16,058 nucleotides of DNA from Giardia intestinalis (GCA_000002435.2 AACB03000008.1); one strand, 5' to 3'. Positions 1-16,058 are shown, numbered from the stretch's first letter. Numbers and translations: made by a program. The notes: generated from the letters alone by a model not told the origin.

Positions 1-10
1 ATAGTGGAGT
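1..10 (+). repeat. 3' tail of an upstream intergenic spacer (ATAGTGGAGT = end of GTGATAG repeat + TGGAGTG junction); array continues upstream of window
   Basis: Identical to the last 10 nt of every other spacer (e.g. 5757-5766, 3843-3852) immediately before a unit start. Confidence 0.6.
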
Positions 11-1858
11 GTGATATGTACAAAGGCCAGTAATGGACTGTGCACTGCTTGTAAGACAGATAACAAGTACATATTCCAGAACAGGGCAGACAAGGTGACT
101 CCTGGTGGGGAGTGCATCTTGTGCTCTGATATCAAGGGAGCGAATGGATATACGGGAGTGGCCAACTGTCTCAAGTGTACGGCACCAGGGAATGCAGGAC
201 CTGCCACGTGTAATACCTGTCAAGAGGGGTACTTCCTAAACAACAAGCTTTGTAAGCCATGCGAGGGGAACTGTGCCACCTGTGAGACATCGGCGACCCA
301 GTGCACATCGTGTCCAGAGGGGAAGTACCTCAATGGGAATCAATGTACTGATAGCTGTGGTAATGATAAGTATGCTGACCCGGAGTCGGGAACATGCAAG
401 GCATGTAGTACGATACACGCAGAGTGCACGGCATGCTCCTTCGACAAGGCCACGGGGAAGCCGAAGTGCACTAACTGCGGGACCAATAAGACCCCCAGGA
501 CGGCCCTCGACGGGACATCGACCTGCGTGGCGAAGACGCTTGAAGGATGCGAGGGCGCTGACGAGGCCTTATTTATGAAGGAGGACAAAACGTGTGCTCT
601 TTGTAGTGATGTGACAGATTCAACTCTTGGTAACGAAGGAAAGGCCAACTGCAAGACATGTACGAAAACAGGAAGTGACAATCCAACCTGCTCAGCCTGT
701 CTCGATGGATACTTCTTTGATAGTGGTACTAGTACATGTACAGACAAGTGTGGTGATAACTGTGCCACATGCTCTGTTGCTGGTGATCCAAATAAGTGTG
801 AAACCTGCAAGACTGGATACTTCTTAGTAACTACTACAGATCAACAGGGGAAGAAGTGCGTCCCATGCGATAGCGTAGACGATAAGGGTCGCGAAGGCTG
901 CAGTGTCTGCTCTAACAACGGTGCTTTCAAGTGCACTGACTGTAAGCCTAACTATCGCAAGGAGGGCAGTACTGGCTCTGTCACATGCACCAAGATCTGT
1001 GAAGATGATACTGCCTGTGGAGGAACTTCTGGTGCCTGCGATGCAATAGTGATTGATGATAAGGGTGTAGAGCATCATTATTGCTCATACTGTGGAGAAG
1101 CTAATACGTATCCTATAGATGGGAAGTGTAATAGTGCTAAAGCAAATAATCAATGTGATCAAGGTGTATGTACACAATGCACTAACAACTACTTCTTGTA
1201 TATGGGAGGTTGTTACAAGGTTGATACAGTACCTGGACAACATATGTGCAAGACAGCAGCCAACGGTGTCTGTACCGCTGTTAATGCCAACAATAGGTAC
1301 TTCATAGTCCCTGGGGCAACCAATCAGAATCAGTCTGTATTGGCATGTAGCAACTCCCTTGGCACACTAGTAGGCACTGGTGATACCTCTAAGGCATATG
1401 TGGGGGTAGATGGCTGTTCGGCATGCACGGCCCCAACAGCTCTGTCTGAGACTGGTATGACTGCTGCTGTGTGTACAGCGTGTACCAACAACAACAAGCC
1501 CAACCTGGCTGGGAGCGGGTGCTTCGCATGTACCGTTGACGGATGCTCGCACTGTGGAGCAGGCGGTAAGTGCGAGGCCTGTACCAGTAAAGACCAGAGG
1601 CCGAACACAGACGGAACGAAGTGCATCGCCTGCAATATCGACGGGTGCGTCAGGTGCAGCGAGGAGAACAAGTGCGGCCAGTGTGGGGACGACTACAGGC
1701 TGGAGGGTGAGGCGTGCGTGTCCACCAAGCCCAGCGGGGGCAACAGAAGCGGCCTCAGTACTGGTGCCATAGCAGGGATCTCCGTGGCTGTCATCGCTGT
1801 CGTGGGGGGCCTCGTGGGCTTCCTCTGCTGGTGGTTCGTGTGCAGGGGGAAGGCGTGA
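11..1858 (+). CDS. VSP-family cysteine-rich type I membrane protein, unit 1 (615 codons). The frame opens after an in-frame TAG at 2-4 and has no in-frame ATG and no signal peptide
   Basis: Open frame to TGA 1856-1858. The C-terminus reads ...GGNRSGLSTGAIAGISVAVIAVVGGLVGFLCWWFVCRGKA* (TM + CRGKA tail). Many CxxC pairs. YFLYMGGCY motif at about 1190-1216. Positions about 370-1858 are near-identical to 4221-5709. Confidence 0.8.
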   Translation: MICTKASNGLCTACKTDNKYIFQNRADKVTPGGECILCSDIKGANGYTGVANCLKCTAPGNAGPATCNTCQEGYFLNNKLCKPCEGNCATCETSATQCTSCPEGKYLNGNQCTDSCGNDKYADPESGTCKACSTIHAECTACSFDKATGKPKCTNCGTNKTPRTALDGTSTCVAKTLEGCEGADEALFMKEDKTCALCSDVTDSTLGNEGKANCKTCTKTGSDNPTCSACLDGYFFDSGTSTCTDKCGDNCATCSVAGDPNKCETCKTGYFLVTTTDQQGKKCVPCDSVDDKGREGCSVCSNNGAFKCTDCKPNYRKEGSTGSVTCTKICEDDTACGGTSGACDAIVIDDKGVEHHYCSYCGEANTYPIDGKCNSAKANNQCDQGVCTQCTNNYFLYMGGCYKVDTVPGQHMCKTAANGVCTAVNANNRYFIVPGATNQNQSVLACSNSLGTLVGTGDTSKAYVGVDGCSACTAPTALSETGMTAAVCTACTNNNKPNLAGSGCFACTVDGCSHCGAGGKCEACTSKDQRPNTDGTKCIACNIDGCVRCSEENKCGQCGDDYRLEGEACVSTKPSGGNRSGLSTGAIAGISVAVIAVVGGLVGFLCWWFVCRGKA

Positions 1859-1909
1859 CTTGGGTAGTGAATGCTATACAATGGGTGATAGTGTGTGATA
1901 GTATGATAG
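1859..1909 (+). repeat. Intergenic spacer 1: extended poly(A) motif + 2.9 copies of the GTGATAG heptamer + TGGAGTGAGAT junction
   Basis: GTGATAG at 1885-1891 and 1895-1901, ATGATAG at 1903-1909. The final TAG (1907-1909) is the in-frame stop preceding unit 2. Confidence 0.7.
1866..1872 (+). terminator. Giardia-type poly(A) signal AGTGAAT (AGTRAAY), 8 nt after the stop, within extended motif ACTTGGGTAGTGAAT (1858-1872)
   Basis: Matches the AGTRAAY consensus at the expected distance from the stop. The same motif follows every unit. Confidence 0.7.
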
Positions 1910-14419: not shown

Positions 14420-14494
14420 CTTAGGTAGTGAATGCTGTACAATGTGTGATAGAAGGTGATAGTGGGTGATAATGGGTGATAGTGATAGTGGAGT
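14420..14494 (+). repeat. Intergenic spacer 7: ACTTAGGTAGTGAAT + 5 heptamers (GTGATAG/GTGATAA) + TGGAGT
   Basis: GTGATAG at 14445-14451 and 14455-14461, GTGATAA at 14465-14471, GTGATAG at 14475-14481, and TGATAGTGATAG overlapping. Confidence 0.65.
14427..14433 (+). terminator. poly(A) signal AGTGAAT inside ACTTAGGTAGTGAAT
   Basis: 8 nt after TGA 14417-14419. Confidence 0.7.
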
Positions 14495-16058
14495 GTGATA
14501 TGCACAAAGGCTGAGGGAGGAGTGTGCACTGCTTGTAAAGCAGATAACGGCCTGTTCAAGAACCCAGTTACACCTCAGAAGCCTGGTAGTGAGTGCATCC
14601 TCTGTCATGATGTCAATGGGGCAGATGGATATACAGGGGTGGCTAACTGCGCACAGTGTACCAAGTCAGACAGTAGTCCAGGACCTGCCACGTGTACAGA
14701 GTGCCAAGATGGATACTACAAGAACTCTCAGACATGTGTCAAATGTAATGAAGCTTGTCTGACCTGCGATGGAAGTGGTCAGAATCATTGTACATCGTGC
14801 CCAGAGGGGAAGTACCTGAAGAGTAATCAATGTGTACAAGATACTGGATGCGATGGAAACACTTATGCTGACCCGGAGTCGGGAACATGCAAGGCATGTA
14901 GTACGATACACGCAGAGTGCACGGCATGCTCCTTCGACAAGGCCACGGGGAAGCCGAAGTGCACTAACTGCGGGACCAATAAGACCCCCAGGACGGCCCT
15001 CGACGGGACATCGACCTGCGTGGCGAAGACGCTTGAAGGATGCGAGGGCGCTGACGAGGCCTTATTTATGAAGGAGGACAAAACGTGTGCTCTTTGTAGT
15101 GATGTGACAGATTCAACTCTTGGTAACGAAGGAAAGGCCAACTGCAAGACATGTACGAAAACAGGAAGTGACAATCCAACCTGCTCAGCCTGTCTCGATG
15201 GATACTTCTTTGATAGTGGTACTAGTACATGTACAGACAAGTGTGGTGATAACTGTGCCACATGCTCTGTTGCTGGTGATCCAAATAAGTGTGAAACCTG
15301 CAAGACTGGATACTTCTTAGTAACTACTACAGATCAACAGGGGAAGAAGTGCGTCCCATGCGATAGCGTAGACGATAAGGGTCGCGAAGGCTGCAGTGTC
15401 TGCTCTAACAACGGTGCTTTCAAGTGCACTGACTGTAAGCCTAACTATCGCAAGGAGGGCAGTACTGGCTCTGTCACATGCACCAAGATCTGTGAAGATG
15501 ATACTGCCTGTGGAGGAACTTCTGGTGCCTGCGATGCAATAGTGATTGATGATAAGGGTGTAGAGCATCATTATTGCTCATACTGTGGAGAAGCTAATAC
15601 GTATCCTATAGATGGGAAGTGTAATAGTGCTAAAGCAAATAATCAATGTGATCAAGGTGTATGTACACAATGCACTAACAACTACTTCTTGTATATGGGA
15701 GGTTGTTACAAGGTTGATACAGTACCTGGACAACATATGTGCAAGACAGCAGCCAACGGTGTCTGTACCGCTGTTAATGCCAACAATAGGTACTTCATAG
15801 TCCCTGGGGCAACCAATCAGAATCAGTCTGTATTGGCATGTAGCAACTCCCTTGGCACACTAGTAGGCACTGGTAATACTGCTAAGGCATACGTGGGGGT
15901 GGATGGCTGCTCCCGGTGTACAGCACCAACAGCTCTAACAACAGCTGGTATGACTGTCGCTGTGTGTACCTCTTGTGACAGTAGTAAGAAGCCCAACAAG
16001 GGTGGTAGTGGGTGTGTGACATGCTCTGTGGGTGATTGCAAGAGCTGTGTGATGGATG
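14495..16058 (+). CDS. VSP-family protein, unit 8, 3'-truncated by the window end. It is a mosaic: 14495 to about 15875 equals unit 3, and from about 15876 it is unit-7/unit-5-type
   Basis: The frame from GTG 14495 reads (V)ICTKAEGGVCTACKADNGLFKNPVTPQKPGSECILCHD... The last codons are ...CKSCVMD at 16055-16057. It is absent from the ORF track only because no stop is reached. Confidence 0.7.
   Translation, partial: MICTKAEGGVCTACKADNGLFKNPVTPQKPGSECILCHDVNGADGYTGVANCAQCTKSDSSPGPATCTECQDGYYKNSQTCVKCNEACLTCDGSGQNHCTSCPEGKYLKSNQCVQDTGCDGNTYADPESGTCKACSTIHAECTACSFDKATGKPKCTNCGTNKTPRTALDGTSTCVAKTLEGCEGADEALFMKEDKTCALCSDVTDSTLGNEGKANCKTCTKTGSDNPTCSACLDGYFFDSGTSTCTDKCGDNCATCSVAGDPNKCETCKTGYFLVTTTDQQGKKCVPCDSVDDKGREGCSVCSNNGAFKCTDCKPNYRKEGSTGSVTCTKICEDDTACGGTSGACDAIVIDDKGVEHHYCSYCGEANTYPIDGKCNSAKANNQCDQGVCTQCTNNYFLYMGGCYKVDTVPGQHMCKTAANGVCTAVNANNRYFIVPGATNQNQSVLACSNSLGTLVGTGNTAKAYVGVDGCSRCTAPTALTTAGMTVAVCTSCDSSKKPNKGGSGCVTCSVGDCKSCVMD

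Follow-up and report, generated by a model that had tools for sequence, protein, structure and literature searches.

We interpret a 16,058-nt stretch of Giardia intestinalis DNA (GCA_000002435.2, AACB03000008.1), referred to below as the window, as part of a linear array of variant-specific surface protein (VSP) pseudogenes (psiVSPs) whose members have exchanged sequence by homologous recombination and act as a silent reservoir of VSP sequence. We give this reading a probability of about 0.88. The window contains eight VSP units (U1–U8) arranged head to tail on the plus strand, which carries all long open reading frames (ORFs), and it begins and ends within the array. Positions are numbered over the whole window, and each unit is counted from the first codon, ATA, of the sequence ICT to its stop codon. 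The coordinates are collected in Table 1.

An earlier reading made from the sequence alone (the sequence-only reading) had described the units as mosaics of a few near-identical segments. The shared blocks were examined by self-blastn, by MAFFT alignment with tract finding, and by painting the nearest neighbours in steps of 100 nt. The near identity proposed for U1 and U3 was recovered in two parts: 371–1398 matches 4222–5249 at 99.9% (1 mismatch in 1028), and 1421–1927 matches 5272–5778 at 99.0%, with a divergent patch of ~22–46 nt in between. The tails of these units (1445–1858 and 5296–5709) differ by 1 mismatch in 414. The blocks proposed for three further pairs were also found. U3 and U8 match at 99.4% (3877–5258 and 14519–15900), with 1 mismatch in 1330 over 3903–5232/14545–15874. 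U1 and U6 match at 99.1% (1361–1824 and 10780–11243), with 0 mismatches in 380 over 1445–1824/10864–11243; a 2-nt deletion in U6 adjoins this match, and identity to U1 picks up again past the deletion. U2 and U5 match at 99.0% with one 1-nt gap (1847–2258 and 7567–7979), and over the 60-nt upstream spacer and the unit start together (1859–2258/7579–7979) there are 6 mismatches in 400 (98.5%). The block shared by U4 and U6 exists as described (5797–7143 and 9481–10827 at 99.8%; 0 mismatches in 1325 over 5797–7121/9481–10805), although its true start lies ~30 nt later and its end ~48 nt later than had been claimed. Likewise, short patches of U7 do recur in U4, but in a register 1 and 4 nt away from the one given; the exact matches are 11645–11677 with 6061–6093 (33 nt) and 12173–12202 with 6544–6573 (30 nt). 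A match absent from the sequence-only reading joins U1 (371–1416) to U8 (14864–15909) at 99.5%, and its core (371–1381/14864–15874) shows 0 mismatches in 1011. The two types of unit head were as described, ICTKAEGG in U2, U5, U6, and U8 and ICTxASxG in U1, U3, U4, and U7. Thus, U6 and U8 carry a head of ~27 nt that is unlike the type of the block following it.

When the blocks were mapped along the units, the nearest partner was found to change within a unit. U1 has a head of its own (14–370, 78–89% identical to U4/U6), a body identical to U3/U8 (371–1398), and a tail shared with U3/U6 (1445–1858). U3 corresponds to U8 over 3877–5258 and to U1 over 4222–5249, carries a U4-like patch at ~5250–5271, and ends in a tail shared with U1/U6 (5288–5709). 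U4 equals U6 over 5797–7143, and its tail (7144–7460) is unlike any unit of the window and resembles VSP tails elsewhere in isolate WB. U6 follows U4 for 1.35 kb (9481–10827) and then U1/U3 for 0.46 kb (10780–11243). In U8, a KAEGG head precedes the segments shared with U3 (14519–15900) and U1 (14864–15909), and the sequence is U7/U5-like from ~15875. Only these five units are built almost wholly of blocks shared within the window. U2 and U5 have only their first ~400 nt in common, and U7 shares only short patches of 25–68 nt with other units. The earlier statement that each gene is a concatenation of shared segments was too broad, since the window has no second copy of the U2 body, the U5 body, or most of U7. 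The 1-nt deletion of U2 and the 2-nt deletion of U6 sit in blocks that are otherwise 98.5–100% identical to their partners, indicating that the frameshifts of these two units are younger than the copying events.

In the columns of the shared blocks, pairs within a group were 98–100% identical, and pairs outside the group averaged 61–68% (single pairs 49–77%). The shared blocks thus do not owe their identity to general conservation; across all units, conservation (88–100% identity) is confined to the final ~84 nt and the poly(A) signal. A GENECONV-style permutation was applied to 1005 polymorphic sites with 2000 permutations, for which the lowest attainable p value is 0.0005. The longest concordant runs were 825 sites (U4–U6), 604 sites (U1–U3), 131 sites (U1/U3–U6), and 88 sites (U2–U5); the pairwise p values lay at the floor of 0.0005, and the global p values were 0.0005–0.033. 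The abrupt switches in identity (~100% against ~60–65%), the incongruent neighbours, and the significant permutation result agree with the recombination proposed by the sequence-only reading. That reading had named uniform divergence along the units as the contrary pattern, and the alignment showed abrupt switches instead. Moreover, partners swap along a unit with essentially zero divergence on either side of the switch. Neither a single tree nor rate heterogeneity is able to yield such partner switching, which calls for five or more exchange events along with several duplications. A multi-unit segmental duplication was also considered as the source of the blocks but is rejected, since the similarity of U1 to U3 is not matched by one of U2 to U4, nor that of U4 to U6 by one of U5 to U7, and the diagonal differs for each block.

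The breakpoints fall at two recurrent places, although the events are too few for a statistical test. The first place, at residues ~113–119 by the YADP motif, includes the switch between U1 and U3 at ~370 (~355–375) and that between U2 and U5 at ~2258 (~2250–2270). The second is a short region, designated region d (Table 1), in which U1, U3, U4, and U6 carry alternating short patches of one another's variants. This patchiness points to gene conversion, as expected from patchy mismatch repair of heteroduplex DNA. The tail identity among U1, U3, and U6 continues past the stop codon into the spacer, and that between U1 and U3 extends further, to the first 9 nt of the next unit. Long blocks anchored at a unit end could have arisen by unequal crossover or by long conversion tracts alike. 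The embedded patches and alternating micro-patches fit conversion, and double crossovers may fit a static sequence too. A stand-alone VSP of G. intestinalis DH (assemblage A2; positions 7546–8463 of its locus) is 90% identical to U6 10370–11285, across the switch from U4-like to U1-like sequence. From this, U6 seems to preserve the older arrangement, and the part that was replaced would be the tail of U4. The DH gene (AHGT01000044.1, 6300–8453) stands amid housekeeping genes, and its 3' 918 nt match U6. A signal-peptide-like sequence lies upstream of it in a different frame, and assembly frameshifts are probably responsible.

Several other explanations of the mosaic pattern were weighed. Duplication and divergence without recombination would make the identical stretches slow or constrained regions of recent duplicates. 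The conserved ends of all units are compatible with this, and short motifs such as those of U7 could reflect constraint. However, non-partner pairs diverge in the very columns of the blocks, partners change along a unit (U6 resembles U4 and then U1/U3, U8 resembles U3 and then diverges, and U1 is unlike U3 and then equal to it), and 0 mismatches in 1.0–1.3 kb stand beside saturated synonymous divergence, so that this explanation is hardly conceivable. Unequal crossover as the only process, that is, reciprocal misaligned exchange between sister or homologous arrays that alters the copy number without conversion, draws on the end-anchored position of the long blocks and on the tail identity through the stop codon into the spacer. 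In addition, tandem arrays are classic substrates of unequal exchange, and the growth of an array in copy number itself requires crossover. We nevertheless consider crossover alone unlikely, since patches flanked by the other parent are embedded in the units (U4-like in U3; alternating U1-like and U4-like in U6), 27-nt KAEGG heads are grafted onto U6 and U8, and U7 contains its 25–68-nt patches. Furthermore, dispersed VSP genes of other chromosomes contain some of the blocks, a sharing that crossover within the array cannot produce. The blocks might also be a chimeric consensus assembled from reads shorter than a unit in a repeat-rich array. In the 2007 WB assembly, such arrays caused a break-up into numerous short contigs (Adam et al. 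2010, PMC2996952). XP_001705784.1, a protein of that assembly, follows U1/U3 in its body but is of U6 type over a patch in region d; it is either one more recombinant or, possibly, a blended consensus. An artefact of this kind is very unlikely for the mosaic as a whole. AAN52102.1 and XP_001703925.1 independently cross the junction between head and body of U5, and the DH gene crosses the U6 junction at a uniform 90%. Block-mates retain private changes (the 1-nt deletion of U2, the 2-nt deletion of U6, and single mismatches), which a collapse would erase, and their spacers differ in length. The same mosaic also ties the window to proteins of a long-read WB assembly encoded on other chromosomes.

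Exchange seems to have reached WB VSP genes outside the array. Proteins of WB were compared with the translated units by longest common substring and windowed identity, and long runs of identical residues were found both in proteins with a signal peptide and in other array-type units (Table 1). The flanks of each shared block fall to ~50% identity. As read from these sequences, the blocks would record past exchange only.

Table 1. Features of the window and WB proteins sharing long runs of identical residues with its units
Feature	Position (nt)	Strand	Description
U1	14–1858	+	Intact 614-codon frame ending in CRGKA-TGA; without ATG or signal peptide
U2	1919–3783	+	VSP pseudogene; frame shifted by a 1-nt deletion near 2133
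U3	3856–5709	+	Intact 617-codon frame; without start codon
U4	5770–7578	+	Intact 602-codon frame; without start codon
U5	7639–9393	+	Intact 584-codon frame; without start codon at the 5' end
U6	9454–11275	+	2-nt deletion at 11244/5, causing a frameshift in the transmembrane/CRGKA tail
U7	11357–14419	+	Long unit; intact 1020-codon frame; without start codon
U8	14498–16058	+	Incomplete at the window end
Spacers	1859–1918, 3784–3855, 5710–5769, 7579–7638, 9394–9453, 11276–11356, 14420–14497	+	
Region d (second breakpoint place)	1380–1445 (U1)	+	Codes LGTLVGTGDT.KAYVGV..CS.CTAP, residues ~455–475
Region d, equivalents	5231–5296, 7115–7180, 10799–10864, 15873–15938	+	
P0003			748 aa, signal peptide, ends in CRGKA; 271 identical residues in a row with U2
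P0007			720 aa, signal peptide, ends in CRGKA; 142 identical residues in a row with U5
P0018			Signal peptide, tail YRGRK, named high cysteine membrane protein in its source; 125 identical residues in a row with U4/U6
P0005			Signal peptide, ends in CRGKA; 69 identical residues in a row with U4/U6
XP_001705627.1			WB array-type unit; 292 identical residues in a row with U5
XP_001706653.1			WB array-type unit; 143 identical residues in a row with U4/U6
XP_001707661.1			WB array-type unit; 158 identical residues in a row with U7

The units belong to the VSP family. Matches to the Giardia VSP family of Pfam (PF03302) had E values of 5e-39 and 2e-84 and scored 134.7 and 284.4 bits, above the curated cut-off of 31.4, and a search of 5.8 billion proteins returned Giardia VSPs only. 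The units are rich in cysteine (12.0–13.0% Cys, 24–45 CXXC motifs per unit), and their translations contain FLYMGGCY, with the GGCY motif of the family. U1–U5 and U7 end in a hydrophobic, transmembrane segment followed by CRGKA and the stop codon; in U6, CRGKA is kept in the DNA but is out of frame because of the 2-nt deletion. The best protein match was XP_001705784.1 of G. lamblia ATCC 50803 (WB), with 99% identity over 69% of U3. The sequence of U5 from its first internal ATG (7774–9390) is 100% identical to AAN52102.1, annotated as variant-specific surface protein S7 (539 aa). These matches point to assemblage A of G. intestinalis as the source, either WB itself or an isolate very close to it. 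The last ~470 residues of U7 are ~97–100% identical to XP_001707661.1 of WB, and a stretch of U7 of ~1.3 kb (~13000–14290), which has no counterpart in the other units, contains a second GGCY-type module.

None of the units has an in-frame ATG at its 5' end. Every unit opens with ATA-TGC-ACA (ICT), three codons downstream of an in-frame TAG, and the VSP initiator (Inr) PyAATGTT did not occur on either strand of the window. Complete VSPs (e.g., P0003, P0005, P0007, P0015, and VSP4A1) begin with a signal peptide (MLLIALHLV..., MFQLIPLFVASALMA...) and carry 105–108 residues ahead of the position of ICT (...CGKCGDGYFLFMGGCY....PGSE|ICT). Because complete homologues have these additional N-terminal residues, the units are truncated at the 5' end and lack the signal peptide and the first module, ~107 codons. 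Other WB array units (e.g., XP_001703902.1 and XP_001706653.1) retain a slightly longer remnant, LLFMGGCY..PGSE, which likewise follows the GDSDS (= GTGATAGT) spacer. A start provided by a spliced or trans-spliced 5' exon was considered too and set aside: on reading the spacers, an intron 3' motif of the Giardia type was not noticed, and the search for it went no further than that reading. Thus, neither an ATG with a signal peptide of 14–17 residues nor a PyAATGTT Inr, the hallmarks of a complete VSP gene, was present in the units. The array has the features by which linear arrays are defined, namely at least 2 (more than 3 in Xu et al.) adjacent head-to-tail units with short spacers, and downstream members without start codon, Inr, or signal peptide. 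We conclude that the units are VSP pseudogenes in a linear array and not expressible genes, and the array is most likely silent in both transcription and translation.

The spacers have the same make-up at all junctions, the poly(A) signal CTTGGGTAGTGAAT followed by three to five GTGATAGTGN decamers. The poly(A) signal GTAGTGAAT lies 6 nt past the stop codon at 7/7 stops and matches the Giardia consensus AGTRAAY. The spacers are 60, 72, 60, 60, 60, 81, and 78 nt long, and 7/7 of these lengths are multiples of 3. Since the spacer repeat has a period of 10, its TGA/TAG stops occur in all three frames, with 6–8 in the frame of the next unit. Other WB arrays have the same spacer repeat with a period of 6 (GATAGT, 'DSDS'), which is open in one frame. 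Two tandem VSP units on a contig from another sample (ENA ERZ27316335, k141_9213, 1–2407) showed 89–96% local identity to units of the window, and their junction is the same as that of the window: CRGKA-TGA, the poly(A) signal, GTGATA decamers, and the head GTGATATGCACA. An Rfam scan of the window gave zero matches to structured RNAs. ORFs of 250–350 codons overlap the units on the minus strand (e.g., 5269–6327, 7065–7829, and 9238–10011) and are probably a side effect of sense-frame codon composition. The GC content at third codon positions, calculated per block of 100 codons, ranged from 36% to 79% inside single units (56, 63, 40, 36, 48, and 76 along U1; ~70% in the body of U2). These swings suggest segments with different histories or GC-biased conversion.

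Despite the absence of start codons, frames of 520–1020 codons are intact in 6/8 units. In divergent pairs, the synonymous substitution rate (dS) was saturated (about 0.9 to above 2) and the ratio of nonsynonymous to synonymous rates (dN/dS) was 0.17–0.4, and 69/78 Cys columns were invariant. The dN/dS values and the Cys invariance indicate that the segments diverged under constraint at the protein level. Either the divergence took place in expressible genes before copying into the array, or copies with open frames were favoured or refreshed by conversion.

These features also bear on a regulatory role, in which the array would be transcribed in sense or antisense and feed the RNA interference (RNAi) that silences all VSPs but one. 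VSP expression is reportedly controlled by RNAi (Prucca et al. 2008, as cited in PMC2996952), small RNAs derived from the array would match expressible VSPs over the long regions of identity, and the ORF of U5 was once deposited as a VSP protein. However, the initiator element is absent from both strands of the window, there is essentially no transcription of the psiVSP arrays in Giardia muris (PMC7641422), and a source of RNA would need neither kept frames, nor an invariant Cys scaffold, nor a dN/dS below 1. It is thus quite improbable that regulation is the main role of the array.

The psiVSP array probably formed and evolved as follows. A VSP copy truncated at the 5' end, without the signal peptide and the first ~107 codons, would have been attached to the 3' end of its predecessor via the poly(A) signal and the short GTGATAGTGN decamer repeat, and the joined unit would then have been amplified head to tail. 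The members of the array have since swapped sequence repeatedly by homologous recombination, through gene conversion and/or unequal crossover, and the embedded patches and micro-patches would reflect non-reciprocal gene conversion with patchy heteroduplex repair. Over evolutionary time, the array would act as a store of in-frame segments preserving the cysteine scaffold, which could be copied into expressible VSP genes. The sequence-only reading had proposed that the array generates new antigen combinations. The shuffling agrees with our data, but display by the units themselves does not, since all of them are truncated at the 5' end without ATG, signal peptide, or PyAATGTT, and U2 and U6 are also frameshifted. 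For new antigens to result, sequence would have to pass into a VSP gene competent for expression, a step hypothesised in the literature.

The window is almost certainly one of the WB linear arrays described by Adam et al. (2010, BMC Genomics 11:424, PMC2996952). Such arrays, with ~60-bp spacers, contain more than half of the vsp genes of WB. The first member often has a normal upstream region with an Inr, and the downstream members lack Inr and ATG. Array pairs with "long regions of 100% identity" were reported, recombination was supported by GENECONV and DualBrothers, and the arrays were hypothesised to be recombination cassettes or a reservoir (PMC2996952). The window shares the head-to-tail arrangement, the ~60-bp spacers, the lack of Inr, ATG, and signal peptide, the CRGKA end, the poly(A) signal, and the GENECONV signal with these arrays, and there is no difference in kind; the recombination test of that study covered 3' segments of 234–657 bp in selected clades. 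Later work counted 208 psiVSPs in G. intestinalis and cited its arrays (Xu et al. 2020, Microb Genom 6:mgen000402, PMC7641422), classified start-less pVSPs in arrays and attributed nearly a tenth of the WB genome to VSP genes and psiVSP arrays (Rodriguez-Walker et al., bioRxiv 2022.03.07.483299), and found VSPs to be over-represented in gene-conversion tracts in a 2025 population study (PMC12669663). The psiVSP arrays of G. muris are likewise tandem pseudogenes without signal peptides that show phylogenetic signs of recombination, or of segmental gene conversion, with intact VSPs, and a silent reservoir was proposed for them (PMC7641422). They differ in that almost all are adjacent to telomeres, the tail is CRGK instead of the CRGKA seen here, and their lack of transcription was demonstrated, whereas we infer the silence of the present array. 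The VSG system of Trypanosoma brucei also has large silent arrays of often truncated or frameshifted copies, from which segmental conversion builds in-frame mosaics with several donors. In contrast to Giardia, it relies on telomeric expression sites, 70-bp repeat boundaries, and switching by DNA rearrangement, and its protein family is unrelated; switching in G. intestinalis is reportedly epigenetic/RNAi-based without rearrangement, and no expression site is visible in the window. Arrays of promoter-less, 5'-truncated cassettes also serve as donors of segmental conversion in Borrelia vlsE/vls, Anaplasma msp2, and Pneumocystis MSG. Those systems differ from Giardia as known so far in having a single defined expression locus that receives the segments and conversion demonstrated during infection.

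Some points weigh against a recombining, silent reservoir. Each junction rests on a single assembly, and independent support is limited to the U5 and U6 junctions and the c138–e136 junction. Evidence for the blocks common to complete WB VSPs comes from protein comparison only. The entry AAN52102.1 ('VSP S7') might derive from a transcript, which would speak against silence; a literature search on the origin of 'VSP S7/S6' (AAN52102/AAN52101) returned nothing relevant. In G. intestinalis, VSP switching is reported to involve no DNA rearrangement (background in PMC2996952), and a striking synteny in the genomic distribution of VSP genes is reported for the AI isolates WB-C6 and Be-2 (PMC11169602). 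Given such switching and synteny, exchange is probably rare on short time scales. It is doubtful that the array is an active donor library, as opposed to a fossil, in which psiVSPs and expressible VSPs still undergo segmental conversion with each other fast enough to matter in clonal lineages or chronic infections. The blocks of 1.0–1.3 kb with zero differences, the kept frames and Cys scaffold, and the identity to VSPs bearing a signal peptide do fit such a library. If it existed, Giardia would possess a DNA-based layer of mosaic antigens, similar to that of T. brucei, atop epigenetic/RNAi switching, and the YADP (~residue 115) and LGTLVGTGDT.KAYVGV (~455–475) islands would be the favoured points of exchange.

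Since this type of array, its recombination, and the reservoir hypothesis have already been published, the value of the present analysis is confirmatory and descriptive. Its additions are a detailed map of one array, the patchiness at breakpoints, two candidate hot regions, blocks common to expressible VSPs, and dN/dS values. VSPs form the surface coat and the antigenic-variation system of a major human diarrhoeal parasite. The window shows how their repertoire is diversified: in-frame blocks are shuffled from one silent copy to another, and also between silent copies and expressible ones. Its well-defined junctions and candidate hot regions could be used to ask whether such exchange matters within an infection.

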